A stretch of DNA of 64,000 nucleotides from an uncultured Hormoscilla sp. (GTDB lineage: Bacteria; Cyanobacteriota; Cyanobacteriia; Cyanobacteriales; Desertifilaceae), in NCBI GenBank assembly GCA_963921275.4, contig OZ001293.3:5632001-5696000 (forward strand), written 5' to 3'. Below the pieces are notes generated by a model. That model saw nothing but the letters and a program-made list of their open reading frames with translations, had not been told where the DNA came from and ran no database searches. Numbering within the stretch: the stretch's first letter is position 1; each line of letters begins with the position of its first letter. Of the stretch, positions 1 through 64,000 are shown piece after piece. The position numbers and the translations under genes were made by a program.

Positions 1-351
1 CTTGCTAATTGCTAATTGTTCGTAATTATTTATTGCCATGAGCCTCGTTCCCTGGCGACCCCTGGGAACGGAGCTGCGATGTACACGGCTGCGCCCCACA
101 TCGCGCAGCGCTATCGGGGCGCGCTAGTCGCACTACCTCACGCTGCGCGTCCGCGTAGCGTGCGCGCAGCGCATAAAATCGCACATCGCCATGAGACAAT
201 ACTTTATAGACAGCTGGGGCTACTGAATTAATCGGCATCGTAATTGTACTTTTACCCCAGCCTCAGCTAATATAGGAAAACTTTTAGATTTTCTCTGGAA
301 ATCGCTCTACATTGATAGAAATGGTAATTAAATCGTAATTTATTGTACAAT

Positions 352-3300
352 ATGCATCGAATTTCGGCAACCCCTGGAGGGTGGAATTTTCAAGACATAG
401 GCACGATCTTTATTCAGCAGACCTCCGCACCGATCGTCTGCTTGAGTGCGGCTGATACGGACATTCAAACCCTGGCAGCGGCTGTAAAGCAGTTACCAGT
501 TGAGTTTCCATCTGTGCGAGTGGTTAATCTCTTGCAATTGCAGCAACAATTGAGTATTGATATTTATGCAGAAGAAGTGCTGGGGTCTGCCCAGGTGATT
601 ATTTTGCGGCTGCTGGGAGGGCGGGCCTACTGGTCCTATGGGTTAGAAGTATTAAAAGAAACGGTAGAAAACACGGGTGCTGCTTTGATTGTGCTACCAG
701 GAGACGATCGCCCGGATCCAGATTTAATCGGTCACTCGACTATTTCCCTGGCAGTTGCGAACCAGTTGTGGCGCTACTTCACTGAAGGTGGGATTGTCAA
801 TTTTACCAATGCGCTCAAATTCGTTGCTGACGCCTGTTTGGGATCTAGCTATAACCCACCACCTCCCCAAGCAGTACCCCTGGTGGGACTTATCCGGTGG
901 AATAATAACAGTCAGCAAGCAGTTAAGAAAGTAGGTATTTTATTTTATCGCGCTCATTATCTGGCTGGCAATATTGCACCGATCGATGCTCTATCTGCGG
1001 CTTTGGCAGAACGGCAATTAGAACCACTGCCCCTGTTTGTCTCTTCTCTGCGCGATCGCGAGGTCCAAGCTGAAGTGAATTCCTTTTTCCAGTCACGGGA
1101 AATTGACTTGTTGCTGAATACGACGAGTTTTTCTATTGCTCGATTAGATTTAGAATTGCCTTCGATGTCTCTCGGTGCTGCGTCTCCTGGGAGCTTGATG
1201 TCTCCCGGACGCACTTCGATGCCTACCGTTCCGGAAAAATCGGGATGCTACGCTGCGCGAAAAATCGCACAAACCTACGATGCCTTCCGGACGCACGGCG
1301 AAAACCCGGAAGGCATCACTCAGGCATCGTCGAAACCCGGGGGACATCATAGTCGCACTACCCAGGAGACGCAGCGCGCTACTCGCACTACCCGAGAGAC
1401 ATCGGAGTTAGATTTGTGGAAAAGTCTAGATGTGCCAGTTTTGCAGGTAATTTTCAGCGGCGGTACGGTGGCACAGTGGCAGTCGGGAACTGGGGGGTTG
1501 ACGCCACGGGATGTGGCGATGAATGTGGCCCTACCAGAGGTGGATGGGCGAATTATTAGCCGTGCGGTTTCTTTTAAGGCGGTGCAAAACCACGATCAGG
1601 ATTTGGAAACAGATGTTGTAATTTATCAACCAGAGCGATCGCGGATTAATTTCGTTGCCGATCTAGCAGCTAATTGGGTGCGACTGGGGCAAACACCAGC
1701 AGGGTCAAGGAAAATTGCTCTGATTTTAGCGAATTATCCCACTCGTGACGGACGTTTGGCTAATGGCGTTGGCTTAGATACCCCCGCTAGTTGTGTCGAA
1801 ATTCTCAAAGCTTTGTCAGCAGCGGGATATCTTGTGGAGAATATTCCGGCTAAGGGGGACGAACTGATTCAACGTCTGACTGCTGGGGCGACCAATGACC
1901 CGGAAGAAAAAGAGTTACGATCGATCGAACATTGCTTGCCCCTAGAGGAATATCGGGAATATTTTGCCAACTTGCCCCCCAAAGTGCAGCAGGAAATCGG
2001 CGATCGCTGGAGAGATTGTACTGAGAAAAATATTCCTATTCCTGGTATCAGGTTGGGGAATATCTTTGTCGGCATTCAACCAGCGCGAGGCTACGACATC
2101 GACCCAGCTTTGAATTATCATGCCCCAGATTTAGAACCGACTCATGCTTATTTAGCTTTCTACTATTGGTTGCGGCAAGGGTTTGGGGCTCATGCGATCG
2201 TGCATCTGGGCAAACACGGAAATTTAGAATGGTTGCCCGGTAAAAGTGTTGCCCTGTCCGATACTTGTTATCCCGAGATCGCCTTGGGTGCCATGCCCCA
2301 TTTTTATCCTTTTATTGTCAATGACCCCGGGGAAGGTTCTCAAGCTAAGCGGCGATCGCAGGCAGTAATTATCGACCACCTGACGCCCCCCATGACTCGG
2401 GCGGAACTTTACGGTCCTTTGCAGCAGTTGGAAAGTTTGATTGATGAGTATTACGAGGCCCAAATGCTAGACCCTTCCCGCTTGCCCCCCATTCGCGATC
2501 GCATCACTTCTCTCTTCCAGGAAGAAAACTTACACCAAGATTTAGCACTTGTCAAGTCAGTAGAATTTACCGAATTGCTGAAGAGTGCGGATGGTTATTT
2601 ATGCGAATTAAAAGAGGCTCAAATTCGGGATGGTTTGCATATCTTTGGGCAATGTCCTCAAGGGCGTCAGTTGCGGGATTTGATGGTGGCGATTTCCCGT
2701 GGCCGCACCACCGGCATTACCCGCAGTTTAGCAGTTGATTGGGGTCTGGACTTCGACCCCCTGACCGCAGACCTAGCTCAAACTTTCCTAAACCAAAGGG
2801 CGAATGCGCTGCGCGCACGCTACGCGGACGGGCATTTATCCAAACCCTGTTTCACCGTCGGGGATGTCATTGCGGAATTAGAAGAAAAAGCCGCTGAATT
2901 AGTCCAACAGCTAATTGAAAGTCATCAATGTACAATTAATAATGTACAATTCATAAAAACCCAGGAAGAATTAAATTGGATCGGCAAGAAACTTCTCCCG
3001 GCATTGCAAGAAACTAAAGAGGAAATTACCCAACTGTTGCGGGGACTAGACGGGCTGTATGTACCCAGCGGTCCGGCGGGGGCACCGACAAGGGGGCGTC
3101 CGGAAGTTTTACCCACGGGTCGTAATTTCTATTCTGTAGATATCCGGGCAATTCCGACAGAAACAGCTTGGGATATTGGACGCAAGGCCGCTGAGGCATT
3201 GATTGAAAGTTACACTCAGGAAAATGGGGAATATCCTCAAACTTTGGGACTGTCTGTCTGGGGAACTTCTACCATGCGATCGGGTGGGGACGATATCGCA

Positions 3301-7804: not shown

Positions 7805-8107
7805 CTTGTCCAACTCCGATCGCGCAGCGTGGCGCAGCCATGGAATGACATCAACTTCTCCATTTTAACCAAGTATATCCTTGGAAAAGGATATCAACTA
7901 CTTTTGACCACACTTTCTGTTCGACCTTGGCTAAAGACTCTGAGATATCGCACAAACCCGGTTTCTTGCCACAACTCACGGGACCAGAAACCGGGTTTCT
8001 GATTTCCACCTTGGATAAAGACTCTGAGATATCGCAGAAACCCGGTGTATCTCATATTTGCAAAAATATTAATGTCGTAGGTTGGGTTGAGGCATGAAAC
8101 CCTACAT

Positions 8108-10317: not shown

Positions 10318-10448
10318 GAGTCGGCCTCTTGCGGTGTCTCCTGGTCGCATGCGCTGCGCGCACGCTGCGCGATCGATGCCTTCCGTTTGCTTTCCTATGC
10401 GCTGCGCGCACGCTGCGCGGACGGGGTCGCACAAAAGAGGAGACACCG

Positions 10449-11092: not shown

Positions 11093-11980
11093 CTATCTGC
11101 CAGGAAGACTGGCAGGTGGTTGCTTCTGCACGAACGCTGCTATCTCCAGCAAGCGAGGACTTACTTCCAATTTTAAGAGCCGGATTAAGATTTGGTTAGC
11201 TTCTAGACGGCGCAGATCTCCTCTGCGACTAACGCCTGCTGCGATCGCATTGACTAAAATTGGTGGCACTGGGTTGCCATTGACTTCTAAACGCGGTGCC
11301 ACCAGTTCTATTTGTCGCCCAGCTACTACGCTCAAACCGGACTCTACTAGGATGGCCAGCTTAAACCCGCGATCGTTACCATGCCTCGATGTGCGATTTT
11401 TCGCGCAGCGTGGGACAGTGCGGTTAGCGCGTCCCGATACGCAGTGCGCGACCTTAGGAGCGCTGTGCATCGAATGTTCTTGTAATTCCAGCTGGAAACG
11501 CAGCCGGTTATTATCCAAAAATTCTACTCGCGGATTGACAAACTCATAGCTTTCCATCTGGTCGGCGGCGGCACCTGGCAGGCTGTTTATGCTGAATTTG
11601 CGTAACAGGGCCGCGATCTGGGGCGATCGCAATGCCCGATTTATATCTGCTTCTGTTAACACCAACCGTACCCCCCCTTGCAAGGGTTGTTCTCGAATCT
11701 GGAATAGCTGCTTTCTATCAATATCGATCGGGCCTGTTTCCAATTCCAGAACTGCTATTCGCACCTCTGGTTGTAGCCAGATCCCTCGCCCTGCAATTCT
11801 TACCCGTTCTGCTTTTCCTTGCAGTAGCCTGTGAGTGGGGGCGTTATCTACTCGCACTTGCAGTTCTTCCACCCGATCTACTTGGGCCCTGATGCTATTT
11901 GCGATCGTGCGATCTGCTATCAATCCTGCGGGCGACACTAGCAACAACAAACCTGAGAGCAGTATACTCAAAAATTCCAT
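11093..11980 (-). CDS. DUF2993/LmeA-like protein with in-frame repeat insertion
   Basis: MEFLSILLSGLL signal/TM, VRVDNAPTHRLLQGK, RLVLTEADINRAL. Extra segment at about 11365-11475 is built from repeat units. Confidence 0.75.
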   Translation of the reverse strand: MEFLSILLSGLLLLVSPAGLIADRTIANSIRAQVDRVEELQVRVDNAPTHRLLQGKAERVRIAGRGIWLQPEVRIAVLELETGPIDIDRKQLFQIREQPLQGGVRLVLTEADINRALRSPQIAALLRKFSINSLPGAAADQMESYEFVNPRVEFLDNNRLRFQLELQEHSMHSAPKVAHCVSGRANRTVPRCAKNRTSRHGNDRGFKLAILVESGLSVVAGRQIELVAPRLEVNGNPVPPILVNAIAAGVSRRGDLRRLEANQILIRLLKLEVSPRLLEIAAFVQKQPPASLPGR

Positions 11981-12017: not shown

Positions 12018-12176
12018 CCCGCCTTCCGTGTCTCGTGGTCGCTCGATGTCCCCGGGGAGCTCGATGTCCCCCCAGAGGGGGACGCGCTAATCGCACTACC
12101 CCCGAGACATCGTAGTCGCACAAAAGCGGGGACATCGTACTCGCACTACCCACGAGACACGGAGGGTTCAAACCCC
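12018..12176. mobile_element. Nested hairpin mini-element (intergenic)
   Basis: Outer CCGTGTCTCGTGG/CCACGAGACACGG with inner GATGTCCCC/GGGGACATC stems and CGCACTAC loops. The same outer shell occurs in reverse at 25812-25918. Confidence 0.8.
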
Positions 12177-14668: not shown

Positions 14669-15058
14669 CAATACTTCTCGGTTAATAACTTGTCCGGAGC
14701 GAGGGGGGCTCCCAAACGAGCAATCTTGCGATCCCCGCGCTTAATCCCCCCCGTAGCGCTACGCGCATTTCGTAAAAGCGCAGCGGCAGATTGCTTCGTG
14801 CCTCGCAACACAGGCGACCGAGGGCTAGCAATCTCACCGCGCTGTATCCTGGGTAGTGCGAGTACGATGTTCCCCCTTTTGTGCGCCTAGCGCTGGGAAC
14901 ATCGAGCGACCAGGATACAGCGAACGACGCCGAAGCGCTCTTCCTCTTATACAGGGCGGGGATTGCTTCGGGGGGGTTAACGAACATGAACGCATAAGTT
15001 AATCGCTACGTACCCCCCCCTCGCAATGACAAATAAAATTCTTAACCGAGAAGTATTG
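14669..15058. mobile_element. MITE, 390 bp, with 17-bp terminal inverted repeats and a probable 10-bp target duplication
   Basis: CAATACTTCTCGGTTAA ... TTAACCGAGAAGTATTG, flanked by TGAGTAGAGG (14659-14668) and TGAGTGGAGG (15059-15068). Confidence 0.85.
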
Positions 15059-21792: not shown

Positions 21793-24178
21793 ATTAAACT
21801 AAGCCAGGGAGTCACCTCTCCGAGGAGTCTTCAAAACCGGACGATCTGCTTTTCACCTCATCCGGCTCCTCAGTAATGCCATTCTTGTCACGGGTACGGC
21901 TACTGCCATCGCTGGCAGTCTTTGTGTCGTGGCAATGTTTATGCAACAGTTGTAGGTTGTCCCACCGGTCTTTGCCACCTAATGAAAGTGGTTTGATGTG
22001 GTCTACTTCCCACTTGTCGCTGTCCTTAAACGTCAATTCGCAGTGTTGGCATTTCCCTTTTTGCCTCTTGAGTAGCTTGGCTACTCTATTACTTATCTCT
22101 GGGTTTTTGCCTAGTCTTGTGCTCCAGTAGGTGAGGTTCCCGTCGTATGGGCTGGTTGTCCCTTTTACTTTGGTGTGTCGAACTATCTCTACACTTGCGT
22201 GCTTTAACAGTTGGATTTCTTTATTCTTGTCAGTCTGACACCGGAATCGCCACTGTTCATCCTGGTCTGCTGACCAGTATTTCTTGGCTATCCATTGTCT
22301 TGATTTATTGGGATGTCTTCTCTTAGCCCATTGCCACAGAATGTCCCATAGGTAGGTGTCCATGTCGCTGTAAGTTTCTTTACTTACTCCCGTCCTGAAG
22401 TAGTTTGACCATCCCCGTATTATTAGGTTTAGCCTGCTTATTAGGGCTTCTTGGGGTGCGGCGGCTGGTTACCACTTCTGCTAATCTCTCTTTATGCTTC
22501 CCTATGGACTTTTTACTGGGTTTGATAAGGGTTTTGAAACCTAGGGTTTTTCCGTTACATCTGCCACTTCTGTTCTTACTTACCTCGTATTGCCTTACAT
22601 TGAATCCTAGGAAATCAAATCCCGGGTTTTCTCCGTTCAGCGTATGAGATACTTTTGTTTTTTCGGGCTTTAGTTCTAGTCCTACCCCTTTTAGCCACTT
22701 CGCTATGACCGTTTGCGTTTCTTCTATCTTTTCTTTATTGTCATGCATTACCACAAAGTCATCTGCATATCTGACTACAGTCAGTTTTTTCTTTTCACTT
22801 TGTGTTTTTGCAAGCCCCATTATGGCCTCTTCTAACCCATGTAGGGCTATGTTAGCCAGTAACGGAGATATGACTCCTCCTTGTGGTGTACCCTCTTCGG
22901 TCGGATACCAGCTCCCTTTGTCTATCACCCCGGCTTTTAACCATGCCCGTATTTGCTTACGGATTGGTGATGTCGTATTCAGTTTTTCCATCAACGCTTT
23001 ATGGTCAATCTTATCGAAGCACTTCGCTATGTCAGCATCTAGTACCCATTTGGGTTTTTGGCGGATACTGATGAATATTGCTTCGATTGCGTCATGACAT
23101 CCCCTTCCCGGTCTGAAGCCATATGAGTTACCTTCAAAATACGCTTCCCATTCGGGCTCTAGTGCAATTTTCAGTAACCCTTGTGTCGAACGGTCGTACA
23201 TCGTTGGTATTCCTAGAGGACGCTTTTCGTCTCTTCCTGGCTTTGGTATCCATACACGACGTGCAGGTTTGGCCTTATTTGAGATATCTATTTGTCCTGC
23301 CAGTTCTAGACGCTGCTCTGGGGTTAACAATTTTACGCCATCCACACCGGCAGTTTTCTTTCCCTGGTTATCTTGTGTTACCTGTCGTACCGCTAGACTT
23401 TTGGCTGCCCGGGATTTTACCAGTAACCTCTGGAGTCTGCGAACTGTCCGCTTGTCGCCACGTTGTGCCGCTCTGTAAATTCGCTTTTGCAACTTGAAGA
23501 CTACTCGCTCCAGCTTACGCCAGGGGCTGTCCTTCCATTCATTCATCGATGTACTCATCGTGCTCATGACGTATACATTGCTACTTGCAACTTCACATTT
23601 TGACATTACCGTGAGGGCGTCAGCGTATCCTATCCATTACAGATAGGCGTTTGCTTCTCCTCTCAATCTTTCCCAGGCATGACCTGCCGTATGAGAGCAG
23701 ATGTTGCGCCATTGGTGGCTACTCTACCTATCGACCGGTGGTAGAGAGTACATGCCTGGTTTACTTCGTTCCTATAGACGATTGGTTGTAGTTTTAGATG
23801 GGTTCTTATATGCCGGGTTTGTTGCCGGTGCTTATTGGTCGGTCACTCATCCGCCAATGGCCATTATCCTTTCCCTTTTGGGCCAGCGTGTTCAGCCTGA
23901 TTACGCTGGTTCGTCATGACGACACTTATGAACCTTCGCTTGCACTCACCATAACTACTTGTTCGGCGATGACTGGCTTAGGCTGCTAGTCAGGGCGCCT
24001 TTCCTTCCCGCTTTACGGATTGATGCCATCGCTACCGTCGGGAGGGCACTGTCACGAGAGCACCTGGAGGGGTGGACTTTCACCACCATCATCTATAAGT
24101 TGTCAGGGCTAATGGAACCCTGCTAGTGGTCCCCCTTCTTGACCGGTGTCAAGTCGGTTTACACTAAACGAATCGCAC
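21793..24178 (-). mobile_element. Group II intron 1 (RT-encoding lineage, degenerate)
   Basis: 5' GTGCGATTCGTTTAG at 24178 and 3' GGCTTAGTTTAAT at 21793. Domain V GAGCCGGATGAGGTGAAA has a mutated 3' arm. Colinear with the introns at 40211 and 57045. Confidence 0.93.
21812..23606 (-). pseudogene. Group II intron RT/maturase/HNH, frameshifted near 22465
   Basis: PQGGVISPLLANI and YADD in 22380-23606. Maturase and HNH (WEVDHIKP...NLQLLHKHCH) in 21812-22363. Confidence 0.92.
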
Positions 24179-25811: not shown

Positions 25812-25918
25812 TGAACCCTCCGTGTCTCGTGGGTAGTGCGAGTACGATATCTCGTGGGTAGTGCGACGCAGGATCGCTCCCACGAGACATCGAGCGACCA
25901 CGAGACACGGAAGGCGGG
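25812..25918. mobile_element. Nested hairpin mini-element
   Basis: CCGTGTCTCGTGGGTAGTGCGAGTA ... CCACGAGACACGG. Same shell as 12018-12176 with a different inner unit. Confidence 0.8.
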
Positions 25919-34759: not shown

Positions 34760-35743
34760 CTATTGCATTACGCAAATACATTAGGACATTCTCGAAAGGC
34801 AGCATCAATGCAGTCTTGGAAATTCTCAAATTCGTTTATCCTTTGTTTCATCCAATTCTTGAGAACAAACCACCAATGCTCTATTTTATTAAGAGCGGGA
34901 GAATAGGTTGGTAAGTATAACAGCTCGCATCCAGCCGACTCAATTAGTTCCCTAACGAATATTGACTTATGAAAACTTGCATTTTCAATAATAACTACAT
35001 CTCCCAAGTTGAGGGATTAAACAGAATTCTACCCAAAATTCAAATAAATCCTTGTTACAACCTCCACTAAATGCTAAAGGAGCAAAGACCTTATCTTCTC
35101 TCTGCGCCGCTATCTAACTGACTCTCTCGGTTCGTTTTCCGGATTTTAGTGCGTAAAATCTTTCTCCTCGGATCGCAGTAACCATAGGGGTATTCTTCTC
35201 TGTTATCTATTCCTGCGATGTCTCAGGAGAGCGCTAATCGCACTACTCCTGAGACATCGCCTCATCAACGTATATTCTCTTATTTTTTCGAGATTATCTA
35301 GTTTTCGCAAAAACTCTTGACGTTTTTCTTCATCTCTTTCCCGATATCCATAGGTCTTTTTTTTTCTGCTTATCCCTAACCAAAGCATGGTTCTACTAAT
35401 ATTTGGTTGCGTAACACAATATGGCCATCTCTTTTTGAGTTTTATCTCCATGCTCCTTTATAAACGCACGAAACTTTTCTTGATTGTTGATTTTGGGTTG
35501 AGGACCTTTGCGACTGGCTGTTTTAGCCTGAAAATATCCAGTCTCAGCCTCTCTTTTCAACCAAAGGTCCAGAGGATTCCTGCTAATATTGAGTTTTCGA
35601 CATATGTTTGTTTTTCGTTCACCTCGTTTATAAGCTTCGATTGCCTTTTTCCGAAAAGCTGTAAGGGGCCGGCATTATTATTCTCCTCGAATCGGTCTTC
35701 TTGTTTTACATTATACGTCCTAAGCTGCTTTGGTAGTGCTATA
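34760..35743 (-). mobile_element. IS630-family element, degenerate
   Basis: MPAPYS start, [45 protein letters not shown]. Multiple frameshifts and TATAG-type ends. Confidence 0.85.
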
Positions 35744-35821
35744 CAAGGTTTTCAGAAGGTCCATTCCGGTGAGTTATAATCAATATACCTTGTCAGTAGC
35801 CAATATGGAGCACTCGCACTT

Positions 35822-36451: not shown

Positions 36452-36522
36452 TTGGGTTGAGGCACGAAACCCAACCTACGATATTAAAGTAAATCATCGC
36501 CGAAGATATTACCGATCGCCCA

Positions 36523-37674
36523 GTGACGAATCAATTTACATTTCAATCTCAGGCTGAATGCAGCCACACCCAAGCCCGGGCCGGGATTTTTACCACCCCT
36601 CATGGTATAGTAGAAACACCCCGTTTCATGCCCGTAGGCACTACCGCCACCGTCAAAGGCGTCACCTCTTCCCAACTGTTGGCAACCGGTGCCCAGATTG
36701 TGCTAGCCAATACCTATCACCTCCACATCCAACCCGGAGAAGATTTGATCGCCAAAGCTGGAGGTTTACATAAATTCATGGACTGGAATGGCCCTATCCT
36801 CACGGACTCCGGCGGCTTCCAAGTCTTCAGCTTATCTGAGTTACGCACCATCAGCGAAGAAGGCGTCACCTTTCGTTCTCCCCGTGACGGACGGATGATT
36901 AACCTCACCCCCGAGCGCTCGATCCAGATCCAAAATAAACTGGGGGCAGATGTAATCATGGCCTTTGACGAATGTCCCCCCTACCCCGCCACCCGCGCAG
37001 CAGTGGAAGCAGCCACCTCACGCACCAGACGCTGGCTAGAACGTTGCCTTCAGACCCATAAACGTCCAGAGCAAGCCTTATTTGGCATCATCCAGGGAGG
37101 GGTATATCCAGACCTGCGGTCAGCCGCAGCCAAATCCCTAGTAGAATTAGACTTACCCGGTTATGCCATCGGTGGCGTCAGCGTCGGCGAACCAGAAGCA
37201 ATCATCGCCCAGATCGTCAAGGTAACCACCCCCTTGCTACCCCCCCACAAGCCCCGTTATCTCATGGGCATCGGCACATATCGGGAAATGGCCCAGGCGA
37301 TCGCCTCCGGTGTAGACCTGTTCGACTGCGTCATACCCACCCGTTTAGCCCGTCACGGCGCCGTCTTCGTCGCTGGGCATCGCTGGAACATCAAAAACGC
37401 CCAATTTACCGAAGACTTCGCCCCTCTGGACGGGGAATGTCCCTGCTACACCTGCCAGCACTTCAGCCGGGCCTACCTCAACCACCTCTGGCGATCACGG
37501 GAACTCTTAGTCTATACCCTACTGTCCATTCACAACCTCACGGAACTAATACGGTTCACCCAGAGGATCCGGGATGCCATTATCCGCGACTGCTTCACCA
37601 GGGAATTTTCCCACCTGCTTACCCCACCTCAAGTGACCAGTGACCAATTATCAGTTCCAGAAAATGTAGTTTAA
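36523..37674 (+). CDS. tgt: tRNA-guanine transglycosylase
   Basis: [43 protein letters not shown]. Confidence 0.97.
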
Positions 37675-37755
37675 ATTTGTCTTAGCTTAACTGAGGAACT
37701 ATGTTAAAATTTATTTAAATTATGAGAGCCCCAACTAGGAGAGGTAAATTTACAC

Positions 37756-37893
37756 ATGGAAGCAGTGCTGCTATTGGCCAAATTGCCCGAAGCTTACTCA
37801 ATTTTCAACCCCGTGGTAGACGTTATGCCCGTTATTCCCGTCTTTTTCTTGCTGCTGGCCTTCGTTTGGCAAGCCGCCGTTGGGTTTAAATAA
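37756..37893 (+). CDS. psbK: Photosystem II protein PsbK
   Basis: Hand translation [45 protein letters not shown] with RBS AGGAGAGG. Below the ORF-track cutoff. Confidence 0.97.
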
Positions 37894-37923
37894 GAACGTC
37901 ACAGGCGATCTGCCCGATCGCCT

Positions 37924-38481
37924 TTAACCGCGTTTCCCGATCGTCTTCTGGAAAGCCGGTCGTTCCGAAAGCCGTTTAATATAATCCACCACCGCCGGAT
38001 ACTCACTCAAATCCAGCTTCAGCATAATCGGCACGTAGGCCAAAAGGGACCCCACTGCCACATCCGCCACCGTCAACTCATTTCCCAGTAAAAACGGTTG
38101 CCGATCGAAAATATCATTCAGCGGTGGGAGAAGTTGGGACATCGCCCGATCGCGACTCGCCTCAACAAAAATCCCCGGTCCCAAAGTCGCATTGCCAAAT
38201 AGCACCCACTGTGCTATCTCCGAACGTTTTTCCAGAGACTCTGGCAGTTGGGAGTGCTTTTCCGCCAGATACATGAGACAGGCCCCCGACTCCCACAGAT
38301 TAAAATCCCCCTCCACGATCGCTGGCACCTTCCCCATCGGATTAATCGCCAGAAACTCTGGTTGCTTGTGTTCTCCCGCCTCCATATCCAGCAAGACGAA
38401 CTCGTAAGGGATCTCCAGTTCTTCCAAATACCATTGCACAATCGACGCCCGCGATCGGGCCCCACCGTATAATTTCAACAT
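37924..38481 (-). CDS. Glutathione S-transferase family protein
   Basis: INPMGKVPAI, LWESGACLMYL, TVADV. Confidence 0.93.
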   Translation of the reverse strand: MLKLYGGARSRASIVQWYLEELEIPYEFVLLDMEAGEHKQPEFLAINPMGKVPAIVEGDFNLWESGACLMYLAEKHSQLPESLEKRSEIAQWVLFGNATLGPGIFVEASRDRAMSQLLPPLNDIFDRQPFLLGNELTVADVAVGSLLAYVPIMLKLDLSEYPAVVDYIKRLSERPAFQKTIGKRG

Positions 38482-38482
38482 C

Positions 38483-38950
38483 TTACAAAACCTTGTGAGT
38501 ATACTCGTGTTGCTTCACATTATCCTCCTTCCGCACAATATTTTCGGCATTCAGCACCCGCTTGCGGGCCGTTGAATAGTTAAAATCCTGGCGAATTGTG
38601 CCCAGAGGGATGTGATTTTTCGCACTTGGACGACTCTTATAGCTGCGCGTCGCCGCGATCGCCCTCTCCGCGAACTCATCGGGAAACTGGGCCATTGATG
38701 GGAAATCATCGGGTCTTTGCGGAGTTTCACCGGTTAGCACCCTTCCCAAAGTCGTTCCACAAGCCATTTCATAGGAAGTTGGAATTCCCTTCACAATTGC
38801 TTCCAGGGCCGCCGAAGGTATCGGTTCCACCACCTTCACCTCATGGACATCTCCCTCTTCCTTAATGAAACAGGTAGCCAAGCCCACCACCAAATAGTCA
38901 TCTTTAGACAGTTCCGGAGCATTTGCATATACCACTGTACTTGTCATCAC
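38483..38950 (-). CDS. Conserved cyanobacterial hypothetical protein
   Basis: DDYLVVGLATCF, EPIPSAALE, DNVKQH. Directly upstream of the GST gene. Confidence 0.75.
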   Translation of the reverse strand: MMTSTVVYANAPELSKDDYLVVGLATCFIKEEGDVHEVKVVEPIPSAALEAIVKGIPTSYEMACGTTLGRVLTGETPQRPDDFPSMAQFPDEFAERAIAATRSYKSRPSAKNHIPLGTIRQDFNYSTARKRVLNAENIVRKEDNVKQHEYTHKVL

Positions 38951-39690
38951 AATCCGACCTTATCCCTTGCTGAGTACCAAATTATATAGCCTTTTACATA
39001 CCGATACCGCCACTCACTCATCCTTGTGACAATTGAGCGACTGGCACAATCTCCAACTAGCGCGGGCCATCGCCAACTTCATCAATTAAACTTTTGGCCT
39101 TGCACAATCGAGGGATGATAGTCATTGTCAATTTTTCATTGTTTGCGCTCATTTTTTATAGTCATAAATAATCAAAATTTGCAATTTTCAATTTTCGATT
39201 TGCAATTTTCAACCCAGAACTTTTTAGCAGTAATACACGTCCCTAAACACACCGCCTCTTGCCCGAACTATCTCTGGAATCAAGATGCCCTTGAGCGTAT
39301 AATTTATTATTGGCGGCATCTGTGGGGCCACAGCCAGCAACCACTTCAGTAACTGACACAATGTCCGTTCCCGGTGGCACGAGCAAGAAATAGGGTAAAT
39401 GTATTCAGGCATCTATACAGCAATACAGCAAATGAACAACAACTCCCCCAGTATTTTACATCCCACTATTTTGGCCGCCACAACGCAAGGACTCTTTCCT
39501 CTGGGAGCCCCCTGCTAACAGCCCCGAAGCCCGTCAGCAACGCCGGTTAGAAGCCTGGTTAAACGACTTGCTCCGACCCCTATTAGCTTAGAACAGTTGT
39601 TAGTTGTCGGTTGTTAGTCGTTAGTTGTCGGTTGACCACTGACCGCTGTTTGGGGCTTTAGCCCAACAACGAACGACTACTGACCACTGA

Positions 39691-40192
39691 CTACTTATTT
39701 TCCTCTATCAGAACAATCGGACGGCGTTGGGGAGCAACTCTGTGACTTTCCTCCTGCATCACCGTTTTCGCCTGCCCTGGATCGAAAGCCCGGTTAAAAT
39801 CCCTTTGCCAGCGGTTTACACGTTCTTCTGCACGCTTCACCTCTGTTTGGATAACGAGGGACTTTTCCTGTACAGACTGATATAAGGGCAATAAGCGCAT
39901 CAGCCCCGAAATTGCTGCCGCCGCCAGTACCAAATTCACCGTTAGCTTAGCTGTTGTTTCCAGGGCCCTGGCTTTTTCAGCCCGCAACATACCCTGGCCT
40001 CCTGTTTCCCCCGATGCTGCGTCTCCTGGTGCTGCATCTCCTGGGAGCGCTAATCGCACTACCCAGGAGATGCAGCGCGCTAATCGCACGTTCCCAGGCA
40101 GAGCCGTGGGAACGAGGGGGGGGACACAACCCCGCTGTTGGCGACGTGACTTCGAGAGTGGTTTTTCTTGTCGTGTCGCTTGATGGCATCAT
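39691..40192 (-). pseudogene. slr1601-like protein (TM plus coiled coil) with its 5' part disrupted by repeat insertions
   Basis: ALETTAKLTVNLVL...LLP...FDPGQAKTVMQE. ATG at 40192 is out of frame with the body, and nested repeats lie at 40012-40125. Located near psaM. Confidence 0.6.
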
Positions 40193-40210
40193 ATTTACAG
40201 CTCAAACTTA

Positions 40211-42608
40211 ATTAAACTAAGCCAGTCCGTCACCGGACCGACTCGTCTTCAAAACCGGACATGAGACTTTCGCCTCATCCTGCTCCTCGGTCACGCCACC
40301 CTTGTCATGGGTACGGCTACTGCCATCGCTGGCAGTCTTTTTGTCGTGGCAGTGTTTGTGTAGCAACTGTAGGTTGTCATACCGGTCCTTACCTCCTAGT
40401 GAAAGGGGCATGATATGGTCAACTTCCCATTTGTCACTATCCATAAACGTTAGTCCGCACTGTTGGCATTTTCCCTTTTGCTGCTTGAGTAGCGTTGCTA
40501 CCCTTTTACTCAGTTCGGGGCTTTTGCCTAATCTTGTGCTCCAATATGTGAGGTTCCCGTCGTATGGGCTTGCGGTCCCTTTCACTTTTACGTGTCTGAT
40601 TATCTCAGTTTCGGAGTGTTTACGTATCTTCATATCACCCTCTTTTGTCTTGCTTCGGAATCGCCATTTAGCATCCTGGTTTACAGACCAGTATTTATAG
40701 GTTATCCAGTTACTTGACTTGTTAGGGTGCCTCCTTTTGGCCCATTGCCATAGGATGTTCCATAGGTAGTTGTCCATATCGCTGTAAATTTCCTTGCTTA
40801 CCACTGTCCTAAAGTAGTTTGACCATCCCCTTATTATCGGGTTTAGCCTGCTTATTAGGGCCGCTTGTGGTGCTGTTATATGGCTAGTTACCATTTCTGA
40901 TAACCGTTCTTTATGCTTCCCTATGGACTTATTACTGGGTTTGATTAGGGTTTTGAATCCTAGGGGTGTTCCGTTTGTTGATTTGCCGGTTCTGTATTTT
41001 CCCTCTTTATATTGCCTTATATTGAATCCTAGGAAGTCGAATCCCGGGTTTTCTCCATTTAGCCTGTGGGCTATCTTTGTCTTTTCAGCCTTCAACTCAA
41101 GCCCTATTCTTCTTAGCCACTCTGCCACCACTGTTTGCGCTCTGTCTATCATCTCCCTGTCTTCATGCATGATCACAAAGTCGTCTGCGTATCTGACTAC
41201 CGTCAGCTTTTGCTTTTCCCTTTGTGTCTTTGCTAATTCCATTACTGCTTCCTCTAACCCCTGTAGGGCTATATTGGCTAGCAGTGGGGATATGACACCC
41301 CCTTGTGGCGTTCCTGCCTCAGTTGTGTGCCATATCTTCTTGTCAATCACCCCGGCTTTTAACCATGCCCGTACTTGTTTACGGATTGGTGACGTAGTAT
41401 TTAATTTTTCGACTAGCGCTTTGTGGTCTATCCTGTCGAAACATTTCGCAATATCTGCATCTAATACCCATTTGGGTTTCTGTTTAATGCTGCTGAATAT
41501 TGCCGCAATTGCATCGTGGCATCCCCGACCCGGTCTGAATCCGTATGAGTTCCCCTCCATATATGCTTCCCATTCGGGTTCGAGCGCAATCTTGAGGAGC
41601 CCTTGATTCGCGCGGTCGTGCATCGTGGGTATTCCTAAAGGACGTTTTTCTTCTCTCCCTGGCTTAGGAATCCATACACGACGTGTAGGCTTAGCCTTGT
41701 TTGAGATTTCAATCTGTCCTACCAGTTCTCGGCGTTGCTTTGGGGTTAGTGATTTCACACCATCCACACCGGCTGTCTTCTTTCCCTGGTTATCTTGTGT
41801 AACCCGTCGTACCGCTAGACATTTGGCAGCCCGGGAGCTTACCAGTAACCTTTGGAGCCTGCGAACTTTTTGCTTATTGCCTTCTTGTGCCGCTCTGTAA
41901 ATTCGTTTTTGCAACTTAAAGACTACCCGTTCCAGCCGAGGCCAGGGGATATCCTTCCATTCATTCATCGATTTTGACATCGTGCTCATGACGTATGTAT
42001 TGCTACTTACAACTTTACAATTGACGTTACCGTGAGGGCGTCAGCATATCCCATCCATTACAGAAAGGCGTTAGCTTCTCCGCGAAATCTTTCCCAGATA
42101 TAACCTGCCGAATGTAAGCAGATGTTGCGCCTTTGGTGGCTGCTCAACCTATCGACCGGTGGTTGAGAGTATGTACCTGGTTTACTTCGTTCCTCTAGAT
42201 GATTGGTCGTAGTTTTAGGTGGATTCCTTATGCCGGGTTTATTGTCGGTGCTTATTGGTCAGAATTCAAACCGCCAATGACCATTATCCTTTCCCTTTTG
42301 GGCCAGCGTGTTTAGCCTTATTACGCTGGTTTGTCGTAACGACACTGTAAATCTTTGCTTTCGCTCACCGTGACTACTTGCACGCTGCGCGAAAAATCGG
42401 CGATGACCGGTTTAGGCTACCAGCCAGGGCGCCTTTCGTACCCGCTTCACGGATTGATGCCATCGCTACCGTGGGGTAAGTGCTGTCACTCCTGCACCTG
42501 GAGGGGTGGGCTTTCACCACCATCATCTAAAAGTTATCAAGGCTAATGGAGCCTTGCCAGTGGTCCCCCTTCGGTTATCACCGGTGGTTTACACTGAACG
42601 AGTCGCAC
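40211..42608 (-). mobile_element. Group II intron 2 (RT-encoding, intact ORF)
   Basis: 5' GTGCGACTCGTTCAG at 42608, domain V GAGCAGGATGAGGCGAAAGTCTCATGTCCGGTTT, 3' GGCTTAGTTTAAT at 40211. Confidence 0.95.
40217..41989 (-). CDS. ltrA: Group II intron reverse transcriptase/maturase with HNH endonuclease
   Basis: 590 aa. RPLGIPT, PQGGVISPLLANI, YADD, GWSNYF, CxxC/HNH tail. Confidence 0.95.
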   Translation of the reverse strand: MSTMSKSMNEWKDIPWPRLERVVFKLQKRIYRAAQEGNKQKVRRLQRLLVSSRAAKCLAVRRVTQDNQGKKTAGVDGVKSLTPKQRRELVGQIEISNKAKPTRRVWIPKPGREEKRPLGIPTMHDRANQGLLKIALEPEWEAYMEGNSYGFRPGRGCHDAIAAIFSSIKQKPKWVLDADIAKCFDRIDHKALVEKLNTTSPIRKQVRAWLKAGVIDKKIWHTTEAGTPQGGVISPLLANIALQGLEEAVMELAKTQREKQKLTVVRYADDFVIMHEDREMIDRAQTVVAEWLRRIGLELKAEKTKIAHRLNGENPGFDFLGFNIRQYKEGKYRTGKSTNGTPLGFKTLIKPSNKSIGKHKERLSEMVTSHITAPQAALISRLNPIIRGWSNYFRTVVSKEIYSDMDNYLWNILWQWAKRRHPNKSSNWITYKYWSVNQDAKWRFRSKTKEGDMKIRKHSETEIIRHVKVKGTASPYDGNLTYWSTRLGKSPELSKRVATLLKQQKGKCQQCGLTFMDSDKWEVDHIMPLSLGGKDRYDNLQLLHKHCHDKKTASDGSSRTHDKGGVTEEQDEAKVSCPVLKTSRSGDGLA

Positions 42609-49734: not shown

Positions 49735-50331
49735 ATGAACAATTTAAGAGGAATTAGTATTTATATAATCGGGATGATGGGTGCAGGGAAAACGACGGTG
49801 GGGGAATTATTGGCAAAGGAACTGGAATATCGTTTTTTTGATACGGATGTGCTGATTGAACGAGTCAAAGGAAAAGCGATCGGGGAAATATTCAAAACGG
49901 AAGGAGAAGCAGGATTTCGGGAGATAGAAAGTCAGGTGTTGGGCTCGCTGTCAGCCTATCTGCAATCAGTGGTGGCTACGGGTGGAGGGATAGTATTGCG
50001 GCAGAAAAATTGGAGTTACCTGCACCACGGCATCGTTGTCTGGCTAGATTTACCGGTAGAACAATTATATAAGCGTTTGCAAGGAGATACGACCCGCCCT
50101 CTGTTACAAGAATGCGATGTCTCCCGGACGCACGGCGAAAACCCGGGAGACATCGCAGACCCCTTGGAAAAACTGCGATCGCTCCTGTCCGACCGGCAAC
50201 CCCTGTACAGTCAAGCGGATTTACACATTACTATGACAGGAGAAGAAACCCCTGAAGGAGTAGCAAGGCGCGTGCTAGAGGAAATTCCGACTATTATCAA
50301 ACCAGAAGTAAAGAATCGGGAATTTAACTAA
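49735..50331 (+). CDS. aroK: Shikimate kinase with in-frame hairpin insertion
   Basis: IGMMGAGKTTVG, GEAGFRE, ATGGG, TRPLL. Extra CDVSRTHGENPGDI at 50113-50154. Confidence 0.95.
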   Translation: MNNLRGISIYIIGMMGAGKTTVGELLAKELEYRFFDTDVLIERVKGKAIGEIFKTEGEAGFREIESQVLGSLSAYLQSVVATGGGIVLRQKNWSYLHHGIVVWLDLPVEQLYKRLQGDTTRPLLQECDVSRTHGENPGDIADPLEKLRSLLSDRQPLYSQADLHITMTGEETPEGVARRVLEEIPTIIKPEVKNREFN

Positions 50332-55950: not shown

Positions 55951-56116
55951 GACCTATAATAAATTGATTTCGACCTATAATAAATCGATTATAATATATA
56001 ATAAACTTAGTATAAATATGACTAAATTAATTATAACATATAATCGATTTATTCATATTTATACTAAGTTTATTCATATCCATACTAAGTCTATTCTGAC
56101 ATATAATAGATTCTTA
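55951..56116 (+). repeat. Degenerate AT-rich 21-bp periodic repeat, 8 units
   Basis: ACCTATAATAAATTGATTTCG-like units, translating as TYNKLIS/TYNKSII/IYNKLSI/NMTKLII/TYNRFIH/IYTKFIH/IHTKSIL/TYNRFLS. Confidence 0.75.
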
Positions 56117-56558: not shown

Positions 56559-59500
56559 ATGGAGGGAGAGGGAGGAAGAAGACTCCCCCAGGCCAGAGCA
56601 GCGATCGCCCGCAAGCAACCCGATATTATCCTCTTGGATCTAGGCTTTCCCGAACAGGCAAAAAACGGGTTTCAACTGTTAGCGGAACAGACTCAATCCC
56701 CCGTGCCTGTGTTAGTATTTACTGATCGAGAGAGCTTGATTGACCGGGTAAAAGTGGCTCGTTTGGGAGCACGGGGCTTTCTCCAGAAACCTATATCTAC
56801 AGCGCAAATTATGGAGGCGATCGCTCAAGTTATGGAAAAAACGGACCCGACCGTGGCCAAGCTGCTGATTGTAGACGATGACCCTCAGATGCTAGACCTG
56901 CTGCGCGCAGTATTAGAACCTTGGGGATTTACAATCACCCTGCCAAACGACGCCAAGCAGTTCTGGAATACCCTAGAACAATCGGCTCCCGATTTGCTGA
57001 TTTTAAATGTAGAAATGCCAGAGTTTAGCGGGATAGACCTGTGCGTGCGATTCGTTTAGCGTAAACCTACTTGACACGTGTCAAGAAAGGGAGACCGCTA
57101 CCAGGGTTCCATTAGCCCCGAGAACTTACAGGTGATGGTGGTGAAAGTCCACTCCTTCAGGTGCAGAAGTGAAAGCACTATCCCTACGGTAGAAATGGCA
57201 TCAATCCGTAAAGCGGGATAGAAAGGCGCTATAACTGGCAGCCCAAAACCGGTCAACGCCGATTTTTCGCGCAGCGTGCAAGTAACATGATGAGCGAAAG
57301 CAAAGGTTTGCAGCGTCGTCACTATCAACCAGTGTAATAAGGCTGACACACTGGCCCAAAAGGGAAAGGATACTGGTCATTGGCGGATGTACAGCCGACC
57401 AATAAGCACTGACAACAAACCCGGCGTATAGAACCCATCTAAAGTTACGACCAATCATCTGTAGGAACGAAGTAAACCGGTTGTAGACTCTCCATCACCG
57501 GTCGATAGATGGAGTAGCCACCACAGGCGCAACATCTGCTTTCATCTGGCAGGTCACAACTGGGAAAGATTAAGTAGAGAAGCAAATGGCCACCGGTAAT
57601 AGGTGGTATAGGCTGACGCCCTCATGGTTTCGTCAATTGTGAAGTTGTAAGTAGCAGTGAATATGTCACGGAACATCGTCGATAGACAAGTGTATGACTG
57701 GAAGGCCGTCCCTTGGCGAAAGCTAGAAAGGGTAGTTTTTAAGCTGCAAAAACGAATTTACAGAGCGGCACAGGAAGGCAACTTGCAGTTAGTTCGCAAG
57801 CTCCAAGGGTTACTGAATAGGTCATGGTCCGCCAAGATGATAGCGGTTCGGCAGGTAACACAACAGAACCAGGGAAAGAAGACAGCTGGTGTGGATGGTG
57901 TAACAGCACTAACCCCAAAACAACGACAAGAACTGGTAGGTCAACTCAAAGTCACCAGAGAAGCAAAGGCAAAACCCACACGTCGAGTGTGGATACCCAA
58001 GCCAGGAAGGGACGAAAAGCGGCCACTAGTAAGACCGACGATACACGACCGCGCACTTCAGAGATTGGTCAAACAGTCGCTAGAGCCCGAATGGGAAGCG
58101 TACATGGAAGCCAACTCCTACGGATTCAGACGCCCGAGAGGATGCCACGATGCGATCGAAGCGATATTCAATAGCATCAGATACAAACCCAAGTGGGTTC
58201 TAGACGCCGATATTGCCAAATGTTTCGACAAAATTGACCACTCAGCACTCCTAGAGAAATTGAATACAACATCACCAATCCGTAGACAGATACGGGCATG
58301 GTTAAAAGCCGGAGTGATGGACCAGGGAATATGGCAGGACACAGAAGCCGGAACTCCTCAAGGTGGGGTAATATCACCACTGCTGGCCAATATAGCCCTA
58401 CATGGGTTGGAAAAGGTAGTGATGAGTCTTGCCCACACAAAGAGTGAGAAAAGTAAACTAACAATAGTCAGATACGCCGACGATTTTGTGGTAATGCACG
58501 ATGACCGGTCAATGATTGAGCGGGTACAAGGAGTAATTGAGGAGTGGTTAAGAGGGATAGGACTAGAGTTGAAAGCCGAGAAAACCCAAATATCTCACAC
58601 GCTAGAAGGAGAAAACTCAGGATTTGATTTCTTAGGGTTCAACATCCGACAATATGCAGTAGGGAAACACAGAAGCGGTAAACTCACCAACGGAACCCCC
58701 CTAGGATTCAAAACCCTAATCAAACCTAGCGATAAATCCATTAGGAATCATAAAGAGCAACTATCACAGATAGTTCGCCGCCATAAATCGACACCACAAA
58801 CAGCCTTGATAGCCAAACTAAACCCAATGATCAGGGGGTGGAGCAACTACTTCAAGACGGTGGTAAGTAAGTTTCCTTACACCGACATGGACAAATACCT
58901 ATGGGAGCTGCTATGGCAATGGGCAAAAAGAAGGCATCCCAACAAAACGGGCAAATGGATTGCCAGTAAATATTGGGCCATAACCGGGAAAGACCGGTGG
59001 AGGTTCACGGGCAAATCAAAAGAAAATGGAGAAATAAAGCTAAACCGGCACTCTGAAACTGAGATAATCAGACACACAAAGGTAAAAGGGACAGCTAGCC
59101 CGTTTGACGGTAACCTAGTCTACTGGAGCCAGAGATTAAGAAAGAGCCCGGACGTAAGCACGAGAGTGATTAACCTACTCAAGAGGCAGGAGGGCAAGTG
59201 CCAGCATTGCGGACTAACGTTTAAGAACGGCGACAAATGGGAAGTGGACCACATTCTGCCAACCTCACTGGGAGGAAAGGACTGGTACTCCAACCTACAG
59301 TTGCTACACGATTACTGCCATGATTATAAGTCTGCCAGAGATGGCAGCAAAGGCCGTATCCATGACAAGGATGACGAAACTGAGGAGCCGGATGAGGTGA
59401 AAGTCTCACGTCCGGTTTTGAAGACGAGTCGGTACGGTGACGTACTGGCTTAGTTTAATAAAGTAGTGCGCAATGACCCACATTGGAATGATTTGCCCGT

Positions 59501-60721: not shown

Positions 60722-60795
60722 CTCTGGGATTTAAGTGCAAGTCCTGAACGGATTACGGATGACATTTGATGACAAAAAAACATTAACAAAATAAA

Positions 60796-62019: not shown

Positions 62020-62315
62020 GAGCGGGTTGGCGATCGCCAACCCGCTTAAAAATTACCTGATAGTAAAAAAGAGGAGGTAAAAGAAGCATGTTCCATGAAT
62101 TTGAAGGGGCTAAAGTCACGGCTTTTCAAATCAAGAAATGTCAGCCCCAGGAGTTGACAATTGTAGCCGATCGCGACAGCGCGGCGCCAGCCGTAGAATT
62201 GCTAGCATAGTTAAGGTTCAGAGAAGTCATAGATCCTGGTGGGCGGTGCTCGCCATACTAGCTAAAGAATGCGCTGCGCGCACGCTACGCGGACGCCTGG
62301 TGGGCGGTGCCCACC

Positions 62316-64000
62316 CTACGAGAAATTACGACGAGCAGCTGACAGCAGGAGGCGCTGTTCCCCACGGGAGATCGCCTGCCGGGTACGATCGACGGCATTA
62401 ATATCTACAGAAATGGAGGTGATACCCCAGCGCACTAAAGCATCTATTAATTCGGGATACATCGCCGGTGCCTGACTGCAGATAGAACAAGGAATTCCAG
62501 CTTGCCGTGCCATGGTAATTAACTGCTCGATCGCCCCCATGACAGCGGGATGACTAGCATTAAGATTACTTGCCAGGGGACCTAAGTCCCGATCAACCCC
62601 CAGCAACAGCTGAGTCAAATCATTGGTGCCAATAGCAATTCCCTGGACTCCAGCTTTAACATATTCGGGCAACAAAAATAAGATAGAAGGCACCTCGGCC
62701 ATGATCCAGAGTTGTAGAGAACGGAAAGCAAAGGTTTCTACCCGACGGCGACAAAAGGAAAACTCCTCTACCCTGCGCACAAAGGGCAAAATTAAGTTAA
62801 CATTGGTTAAACCCTCCTGGTGTAACCTGGCCAAAGCAGCTAGTTCCAGATCGAATAAAGTCGGATATAGCTGATAGCTGAGAGTCCCTCGCAAACCTAA
62901 TTCGTTTCTATCGCTGTCAGACCGCAAATCAAAAGAGCGATAAAATACTGGTCGGGGGGCAAAGGTAGCCGCAAACTTCCGCAGGATCTCCACCCATTGA
63001 TCGATCAACTCCGCCCCGCGACCCTGCTGCAACCACCACTTGGGATGCTTGTTCTCTAAAACCTCTGGGGCCATTAGTTCCGATCGCAATAATCCTACCC
63101 CATCCACGGGCAGGTCTTTGGCCCGTTCCAGAGAACTGGGTTGAGACAGGTTAACTAGCAGTTGCGTGGCAATGGGGTATGGAAAGTGCAAGTGACCGAC
63201 TGTGCTTGCCTGTGGGACTGGTACAAAGGAGTCTTCGATGTCTCCGGAGTAGTGCTCAGATGATGTCCCCTGGGTTTTGGCGATGTCTTCGGGGTTTTTG
63301 CGATGCATCCCGTCGCGCAGCGTGGCGCAGCCATAGACATCGGTCCGGGGGACATCAAGCTCTCCGGAGACATCGAAAGCCTCAACCTGATAAACTTCAC
63401 CTTTGTTGCCATCCATGAGTAATCTGGTGCCAGTGGAAATTACTTGCGTGGCATTACTGGCACCGAGAATGGCTGGGATACCCAATTCTCTGGCAACGAT
63501 CGCCCCGTGGCTAGTCAGTCCTCCCCGTTCCGCGATCGCCCCAGCAGCTTGTTTGAGTAGAGGCAAGTAATCAGTAGTGATTGCCCGCACTACCAAAATT
63601 GTACCCGACACGGCTGGCGCCGCGCTGCGCGATCCGACTGGCTCTCCGGGGTGGGAAAGCACCGTCGCAGGAGCGATCGCGCGTCCGGCCGCAGCGGCCA
63701 GTCCTCTGAGGACTAGCGTAGGAGATTTCGGATTATCCATTAGTTGGGGTCTGGGACTAGAGGGTGGGAGTACAGCATCATCTTTTTCTCTATTTTCCCC
63801 AGTCTCCCGTCTGGGAATTGTTTGCGTCAGCACAAGTTGCGGGTCGTTACCTGGTGCGAGTGAAGCCTGGACCGTCCATTCTAAAGTAAATCTAGGACTA
63901 AAGTCTGCTGCTATTCTAGTTGCGAGGGCAATTAGCTGTTGCAGGTAAGTTTGGTCTAGGGAATTGGTTGCGATTAGTTCCTCGCTGACTGTATAGCTTT
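62316..64000 (-). CDS. PEP synthase-like/PEP-utilising protein (5' end outside window), with nested repeat insertion
   Basis: GGLTSHGAIVARELGIP, DGVGLLRSE, IMAEVPS, AIGTNDLTQ. The frame is open to the window edge. Insert at 63234-63377. Confidence 0.88.
   Translation of the reverse strand, partial: SYTVSEELIATNSLDQTYLQQLIALATRIAADFSPRFTLEWTVQASLAPGNDPQLVLTQTIPRRETGENREKDDAVLPPSSPRPQLMDNPKSPTLVLRGLAAAAGRAIAPATVLSHPGEPVGSRSAAPAVSGTILVVRAITTDYLPLLKQAAGAIAERGGLTSHGAIVARELGIPAILGASNATQVISTGTRLLMDGNKGEVYQVEAFDVSGELDVPRTDVYGCATLRDGMHRKNPEDIAKTQGTSSEHYSGDIEDSFVPVPQASTVGHLHFPYPIATQLLVNLSQPSSLERAKDLPVDGVGLLRSELMAPEVLENKHPKWWLQQGRGAELIDQWVEILRKFAATFAPRPVFYRSFDLRSDSDRNELGLRGTLSYQLYPTLFDLELAALARLHQEGLTNVNLILPFVRRVEEFSFCRRRVETFAFRSLQLWIMAEVPSILFLLPEYVKAGVQGIAIGTNDLTQLLLGVDRDLGPLASNLNASHPAVMGAIEQLITMARQAGIPCSICSQAPAMYPELIDALVRWGITSISVDINAVDRTRQAISRGEQRLLLSAARRNFS

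Follow-up and report, generated by a model that had tools for sequence, protein, structure and literature searches.

The small dispersed repeats (SDRs) of cyanobacteria are reportedly 21-27 nucleotides (nt) long and are said to show compensatory structure and nesting in their own copies (Elhai et al. 2008, Genome Res 18:1484), and an RNA-mediated route is said to have been proposed for them. SDR1-8 of the Nostocaceae are treated in passages of PMC5861425, PMC4390886 and PMC13756078, according to which SDR5 is 21 nt long (PMC13756078) and inserts between bases 3 and 4 of HIP1 (PMC4390886). Here we report on a family of hairpins of 42-47 bases, with two loop types that we call L1 and L2, of which an uncultured Hormoscilla sp. 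(assembly GCA_963921275.4) carries about 400 copies in its genome. We describe them from a window of 64,000 nt of contig OZ001293.3 (positions 5,632,001 to 5,696,000, forward strand), to which all coordinates refer unless another sequence is named. Like SDRs as described, they are very small, non-coding, recently mobile and cyanobacterial and have no known mobiliser; their mobility is seen, as for SDRs, in empty versus filled sites, and the compensatory stems and self-nesting reported for SDRs are found here too. L1 and L2 differ from SDRs in having roughly double the length, in folding as a single long hairpin and in having been found nowhere outside Hormoscilla; unlike SDR5, they enter Y/G sites (the slash marks the point of insertion) and do not need HIP1, and the evidence leans to a DNA rather than an RNA route. 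Because L1 and L2 depart from SDRs in size and in the HIP1 site, we do not claim SDR membership for them. We propose that they are SDR-like, non-coding mobile micro-elements copied as one folded DNA strand by a putative trans-acting strand-transfer enzyme, a reading to which we give an even chance. The literature searched holds no published description of the L1/L2 family, the sequences of Elhai 2008, possibly related to the shorter companion elements treated below, not having been compared; the accessible parts of PMC6520454 mention neither these repeats nor the introns. New here are the test of a link to introns, the evidence from GNA triloops and local clustering, and the distribution across families of host genomes.

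An L1 element is a 16-nt loop closed by a 14-base-pair (bp) stem, and an L2 element a 15-nt loop closed by a 13-bp stem. On the strand that carries the pentamer GTGCG, the L1 fold continues through a bulge into an inner stem of 5 bp that includes a G.T pair and is capped by a pentaloop (NNNTA), the pentamer making up the 5' arm of the inner stem and the first loop base; as DNA, this strand folds better than its complement by 2-3 kcal/mol. The loop is far steadier than the stem, three tip bases excepted: it ends in TA in 198 of 206 copies (a TTTTA variant exists) and most of its other positions are more than 90% constant. Of 171 copies, 134 have GTAG directly 5' of the inner stem, as read on the folded strand, and another 24 have TTTG there instead. 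The exact L1 loop occurs 135 times in the genome and 25-63 times in each of the four same-genus genomes, reversed controls giving 0 throughout; it was absent from the 36 other genomes examined outside Hormoscilla, and a scan of the genome collection returned at least 78 stretches, all of them Hormoscilla among the matches listed. A loop-plus-stem search finds 256 simple copies and an outermost-frame search 419, of which 408 are no longer than 300 nt; 187 of these 408 are nested or composite and 113 lie within open reading frames (ORFs). The six small contigs of the assembly hold 0 of 1,265 motif matches.

The elements are mobile. When they were compared with about 2.9 Mb of DNA from relatives (mostly the genomes G004 and G003) and with paralogues in their own genome, an empty allele was found for 105 of the 508 elements examined. 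The net insert equals the core plus one base (45 nt for L1, 42 nt for L2) in 52 of these 105, the remainder ranging from -8 to +12, and in 41 of the 76 whose flanks are at least 90% identical. The target is not duplicated: direct repeats of at least 4 nt border 2 of 171 copies, against 2.1 in shuffles. This sets the family apart from miniature inverted-repeat transposable elements (MITEs) mobilised by DDE enzymes, of which the same comparison does reveal true cases with 8-bp duplications. The core-plus-one cases represent 48 distinct events, and the 43 that align well were used for junction counts. In the empty site the junction base is G in 26 of these and is preceded by a pyrimidine in 33, so that the target is usually Y/G; it equals the last stem base in 27 events, the first element base in 13 (2 of them both) and neither in 5. 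The target base that follows can pair with element base 2 in 16 of the empty alleles and 21 of the filled ones; complementarity was gained in 8 events and lost in 3.

One example is a simple L2 element at 50113..50154 (+), a 42-nt in-frame insertion in aroK. Its empty site reads GAA/GCA in G002 and GAA/GTA in G003 and G004, and filling converts GAA/GCA into GAA, TGC, hairpin, GCA, so that the first three bases of the element are the reverse complement of the next three target bases. Together with the junction counts, this site indicates that one end is joined fairly precisely and that the other overlaps the target by 1-2 bases; the overlapping bases extend the stem and are sometimes overwritten at the target. 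Two simpler schemes were set aside. The host genome is rich in HIP1 (4,738 sites) and the L1 copy at 35215 suggested insertion between bases 3 and 4 of that motif, but empty alleles rule this out, and the empty aroK site has no HIP1. A 45-nt circle resolved by a simple one-base crossover does not account for the G found at the junction in the 11 of 43 events whose empty site carries T or C there.

The original prediction had drawn attention to a common loop closed by different stems and had read this as covariation, and both observations are borne out. The two stems that it quoted are perfect 15-bp arms at 35215/35246 and 40031/40062. In 203 un-nested copies, selected on their loop and a loose resemblance of the arms but without regard to pairing, 12.9 of the 14 positions are paired, compared with 9.35 (standard deviation 0.09) when arms are shuffled between copies, and the 96 perfect copies carry 58 different stems. 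An alignment of 79 sequences, 66 of them distinct, was built from 77 of the 78 listed Hormoscilla loci and two copies of the window. Double changes occur in 13 of its 15 pairs, a score reached by 0 of 500 shuffles, and slid partners pair in 36-50% against 86% for the true pairing, these controls ignoring relatedness among copies. The inner stem has compensatory variants as well, and mismatches are of the G.T kind on the GTGCG strand rather than of the opposite kind by 81:47. Stem covariation thus points to a folded single-strand intermediate. Strand polarity is also evident in nesting, as the inner copy lies on the strand of the outer copy by 150:3. Within genes the elements survive in a way that preserves the frame: lengths are divisible by three in 99 of the 113 copies in ORFs and in 198 of the 295 outside, which fits the basic 45/42 unit plus selection, and core enzymes (cobN, aroK) stay intact although elements lengthen them by 14-15 codons. 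The GTGCG strand is antisense in 68 of 97 copies in ORFs, which is best explained by its TAG codons.

We now put forward the following hypothetical mechanism. The active strand would be the GTGCG strand, folded as 14-bp stem, bulge, inner stem and NNNTA loop. One end of this hairpin would be joined to the target fairly precisely, and the other would be resolved by a 1-2-base target overlap that pairs with the hairpin foot, sometimes overwriting target bases. Recognition by the protein would fall to the conserved loop, while the stem would need only to pair. We infer a folded single-stranded DNA (ssDNA) intermediate and a loop-recognising enzyme that acts in trans; HUH-type chemistry is our single best guess for that enzyme, a tentative one that we consider somewhat unlikely, and we assign no gene to it. 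Such a scheme resembles IS200/IS605 single-strand transposition (see PMC8266576, accessible part) in the lack of target duplication, the one-sided short target motif (CCGA, in the companions), the hairpin-forming transferred strand and a possible DNA-DNA pairing with the target. It differs from IS200/IS605 in having one tiny hairpin in place of two ends around tnpA, a fuzzy junction with base replacement, no detected replication-direction bias, and complementary bases on the side of the hairpin opposite to the known guides. A bolder version, which we think unlikely, is that these are minimal ssDNA transposons whose hairpin foot is a 1-3-base programmable guide pairing with the target flank, moved by a cyanobacterial strand-transfer enzyme outside the known Y1 families that serves several families of 15-47 nt in Hormoscilla and heterocystous lineages; if true, SDRs would have their long-sought mobiliser in this enzyme, which would also offer a tool for scarless micro-insertion. 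Since one genome supplies hundreds of recent events together with their mapped empty sites, a rule for the junctions and a defined active strand, substrates and targets for an assay can be specified.

The comparison with relatives also revealed insertions of 15-33 nt, several of which lie within stacks of the window and which likely take the same or a related route. These companions insert after CCGA without duplication, the four positions being conserved in 51 (C), 56 (C), 59 (G) and 62 (A) of 66 events, and many 24-nt events lie in CGATCG; in this the 24-nt companions, which insert within HIP1-like sites, resemble SDR5, and the 22-24-nt companions have the length of SDRs. When the loop sequence is left unconstrained, the loops of the 22- and 24-nt companions prove to be almost all GNA triloops on one strand, and in the 22-mer both loops are GNA in 117 of 124 copies. 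Of the 64 triloops only GNA yields a very stable DNA mini-hairpin, the RNA counterpart melting far lower (PMC13037366, accessible part), and on this ground the GNA triloops would favour a DNA over an RNA intermediate. Counted after removal of copies with shared flanks, companions of one family are clustered locally: 44 pairs of the 24-mer lie within 12 kb, against 13 expected, 33 of them on the same strand, and 54 pairs of the 15-mer, against 19 expected; cross-family pairs are near expectation. The 22-nt pattern is not confined to Hormoscilla: it occurs in 36 of 301 genomes sampled across the phylum, among them 29 of 37 in family f6, which is probably Nostocaceae, and in 47 of 201 sampled across the order, and all 9 listed genomes of family f56 have it.

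Several findings weigh against our proposal. About half of the junctions are not core plus one (-8 to +12), which is loose for an enzyme. The GTGCG strand is the better folder as RNA too, by 2-5 kcal/mol, and L1 and L2 mostly have no GNA triloops, so that the DNA argument for them is borrowed from the companions, whose target also differs (CCGA/ versus Y/G). Clusters of the 15-mer have no strand bias (28 of 54 pairs), and L1 is not locally clustered under strict filtering (19 pairs against 14.5 expected). No replichore bias and no shared orientation among neighbours of different families were found, the GC skew being too weak to place the origin. No mobiliser gene lies within a dense element cluster, the densest element windows of the genome holding no tnpA-REP gene, no larger parent element with these ends was recognised among the large insertions listed, of 289 larger indels, and both Y1 transposase genes of the genome are flanked by other repeats, each by its own GTAG repeats. 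Perfect stems, finally, could come from hairpin-templated repair and not from selection on the fold.

This last point is part of an enzyme-free account, in which a nascent or free DNA strand switches template by 1-5-base microhomology, the tightly folded element draws its flanks together and is itself transferred by copying to the empty site, and the arms stay complementary through hairpin-templated repair. The fuzzy junctions with donor bases carried over, the local clusters of the same family and the lack of a dedicated gene all suit it, and very stable mini-hairpins of the kind described in the accessible part of PMC13037366 require no protein. It does not account for a loop that is kept (TA in 198 of 206) while stems change freely, for a net length that is modal, for an L1 target of only a dinucleotide, which offers little homology, or for a family confined to one genus when replication machinery is universal, and we judge it unlikely.

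The original prediction had further raised, as speculation, a link of the elements to the group II intron machinery. All five introns of the window do start with GTGCG, as it had noted (43243, 57045 and 60867 on the + strand, 24178 and 42608 on the - strand), and four of the five have an Rfam domain-5 match; in the host genome the commonest intron 5' 14-mer has 264 copies, and there are 93 reverse transcriptase (RT) matches and at least 88 RF00029 matches. The elements share with group II introns (RF00029) the genome, the lack of target duplication and the pentamer. GTGCG was said to occur in every sub-family, which is true of the main L1 and L2 variants but not genome-wide, where 333 of 423 L1 loops and 46 of 79 L2 loops have it (90 and 33 do not), as do 169 of 169 copies of one 24-mer family and 0 of 513 in five other companion families. 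The link itself is unsupported, since GTGCG is internal, positions are unlinked and the distribution across genomes is decoupled from intron load. That the elements are miniature intron substrates reverse-spliced by intron ribozymes via GTGCG, as might be suggested by GTGCGA, which stands both in the loop of L1 and at the start of each of the five introns, is extremely unlikely: the pentamer starts 0 of 171 elements on either strand and is thus no intron-type terminus, it is paired in the inner stem, it is missing in five companion families, no Rfam intron domain matches any element, and the longest L1 word common with introns is 8 nt, the chance level. GTGCG occurs, moreover, in 9% of shuffled 44-mers. 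Elements are no closer to introns than random sites (L1 median 9.7 versus 9.2 kb) and do not share their orientation.

Mobilisation by the intron machinery was expected to make copy number track intron load across cyanobacteria, and it fails here too. The 22-mer stands in for L1 in this comparison, since L1 is limited to one genus and four of the five genomes of that genus are rich in introns. The draft G139 has 104 copies of the 22-mer and 0 RF00029 matches among the 150 of 252 candidates scored, the complete genome G075 has 10 copies and no RF00029 match, and G252 has 15 copies and no RT match, whereas G028, with at least 87 introns, has 0 copies of both the 22-mer and the L1 loop. The intron-poor G001 has the fewest elements of its genus (25 L1 loops, 6 22-mers), a trend among five kin that general mobile-DNA load explains equally well. 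As a side observation, G002-G004 and the unrelated G028 have at least about 87 RF00029 matches each, and G001 only 2.

A different use of the introns would be retro-insertion, in which intron RTs act in trans on a small hairpin RNA and are primed by a 1-2-base match at the RNA 3' end. The genome, with its 93 RT matches and hundreds of introns, could supply the enzyme, the overlap of 1-2 bases at one junction is reminiscent of template switching by RTs, in an RNA the G.T pair could be G.U, the paucity of elements in G001 agrees, and the aroK copy has a 12-nt word in common with two introns, a length reached in 32 of 1,500 shuffles (2%). That word sits in the RT coding region, however, outside the ribozyme; the 22-mer thrives in genomes without detected introns (G139, G075, G252) and is absent from intron-rich G028; GNA triloops favour DNA; same-strand nesting and local clustering are ill-suited to a diffusible RNA; and there is no positional link to introns. 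We hold retro-insertion to be quite unlikely.

The family also invites comparison with repetitive extragenic palindromic (REP) sequences, REPINs and their REP-associated tyrosine transposases (RAYTs), which it resembles, going by the accessible parts of PMC8266576, PMC6006769 and PMC3116915, in small hairpins that are strand-specific, a GTAG tag in most copies of L1, a loop ending in TA and a single-copy enzyme acting in trans; it differs from them in that no cognate gene is flanked by L1/L2, the junctions are not CT or CA and the tag lies inside a longer stem, as well as in frequent in-frame gene insertion and deep self-nesting. The genome holds two Y1 transposase genes. Protein 1 (L259:84-557 = G000:C1:241783-242256) has the signature Y---Q--H, which belongs to subclass 1.2, generally without terminal structures according to the part of PMC6006769 available, and yet, downstream of its gene, GTAG-tagged hairpins with TTTA loops are repeated in tandem. 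Gene 2 (L260 = G000:C1:1348400-1349050), with NHYH and YIHYNP motifs (cyanobacterial subclass 2.8), is split over two frames and appears frameshifted, and GTAG repeats precede it; GTAG...TTTA/TAAA repeats number about 790 genome-wide. Neither gene fits as the mover, as flanking repeats and junctions differ.

It is accordingly very unlikely that L1 and L2 are REP/REPIN derivatives moved by one of these two Y1 (TnpA-REP/RAYT) proteins, even though GTAG precedes the inner stem in 134 of 171 copies, the TA-ending loop and its TTTTA variant recall the GTAG...TTTA repeats of the genome, and the two genes are present. Both genes are flanked by different repeats and one is apparently frameshifted. Junctions on the GTAG-tagged strand are mostly C/G and A/R (C/T occurs on the other strand in 69 of 171), and not the CT or CA at which TnpA-REP cleaves (PMC8266576, accessible part). 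In addition, 113 of 408 copies lie in ORFs and 24 of 171 have TTTG replacing GTAG. Homologues of protein 1, the intact one, were found in only 16 of the 47 genomes with the 22-mer (Fisher p 0.047, from a hand-counted overlap among kin that are not independent), and none was found in the 22-mer-rich G344, G418 and G333 (41, 42 and 29 copies); on these grounds we reject protein 1 as the mobiliser. Separately, we observed a 50-nt insertion with the CCGA/TTTTTC start of the companions and a full GTAG-type palindrome inside, a hybrid of both repeat systems (L122 ~15653; G000:C1 ~4740145 and 2379080).

Within the window, all ten positions at which the original prediction had placed the loop core CGCACTAC contain it to within 1 nt: 129, 1354, 1384, 12092, 12142, 35239 and 40055 on the + strand and 14853-14860, 25833-25840 and 25858-25865 on the - strand. 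The complete 16-nt L1 loop is found at only five of them (121, 1376, 12084, 35231, 40047), and two extra core matches, at 59470 and 63586, have no element context. The copies at 1354, 1384, 12092, 12142, 14860 and 25840 are not free hairpins but mostly 3' halves of nested Russian-doll stacks, and the copy at 129 is probably not free either. It belongs to a composite insertion upstream of cobN, at 75..187 (+), in which an outer hairpin frame holds the L1 loop (121-136) and, in opposite orientation, a 24-nt double mini-hairpin (~151-173), and which is missing from the orthologous site in three relatives. The second loop was found, as predicted, at 1291 in cobN and at 50128 in aroK, both genes being confirmed by Pfam. 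The cobN copy is part of the deepest stack of the window, an in-frame Russian doll at 1161..1404 (+; core 1163-1404) of the order L1 > L1 > L2 > L2-like frame, whose innermost L2-like frame holds a 15-mer (1225-1239), a TCGC-type unit (1251) and an L2 copy (1279-1318); its net 243 nt add 81 codons with the reading frame intact, and the site is empty in four of four relatives.

Two further composites interrupt genes in frame: an 87-nt insertion at A/GAG in an LmeA-like gene (Pfam; 11388..11474, -), with empty alleles in G004 and in runs X5 and X6, and an L1 > L2 > L2 stack with a 22-nt element in a PEP-utiliser gene (Pfam; 63236..63375, -). An L1-type frame of the AAAAG variant at 10332..10448 (+) contains two 24-nt elements (10350, 10398) and is skipped by a contig of run X6. 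An intergenic L1 stack, three deep, occupies 12026..12162 (+) and is not at the G002 site, which carries other repeats. Two stacks on the - strand are two deep, one (14840..14922) within another dispersed repeat with an empty paralogue in its own genome and one (25820..25910) within a dispersed palindromic repeat with empty homologues in relatives. The simple L1 element at 35214..35260 (+; core stem 14 bp, 35216-35259; 16-nt loop), whose inner stem folds on the - strand, has no clean empty allele among relatives, paralogues or run contigs spanning 34900-40200, and at 40016..40090 (+) an L1 element (core 40032-40075) sits in the loop of an older L1 copy. Companions stand outside these stacks as well: a 24-nt double mini-hairpin in cobN (2805..2827, +; GNA loops on the - strand), other 24-nt elements at 5759, 9326 and 62270, and a 22-nt double mini-hairpin at 7819..7840 (-) with an empty allele in G004.

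Outside the element family, two group II introns of the window, at 40211..42608 (-) and 57045..59459 (+), carry an RT-maturase-HNH ORF (Rfam, Pfam). The intron-like start at 60867 (+) has no Rfam domain-5 match downstream and is possibly truncated or divergent. The intron starting at 24178 has an RT ORF (22380-23606, -) of 408 amino acids without maturase or HNH matches, followed by a second ORF at 21812-22363, which suggests a split gene at 21812-23606. AT-rich long overlapping inverted repeats with arms of 33-36 nt at 55979-56074 are unrelated to the L1/L2 family. Beyond the window, the 31-kb contig C3 of the host genome has 17.6% G+C compared with 47% for the chromosome and is possibly foreign to Hormoscilla. 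The host genome and G004 both have active MITE families of 114-129 nt, which are bounded by terminal inverted repeats and duplicate 8 bp of target, and G004 has a further hairpin insertion family of 39/48 nt, of the GTCGTGTCC...GGACACGA type, with nested forms of its own (L098 ~9912; L086 ~11240 and 16465; L115 ~13777).

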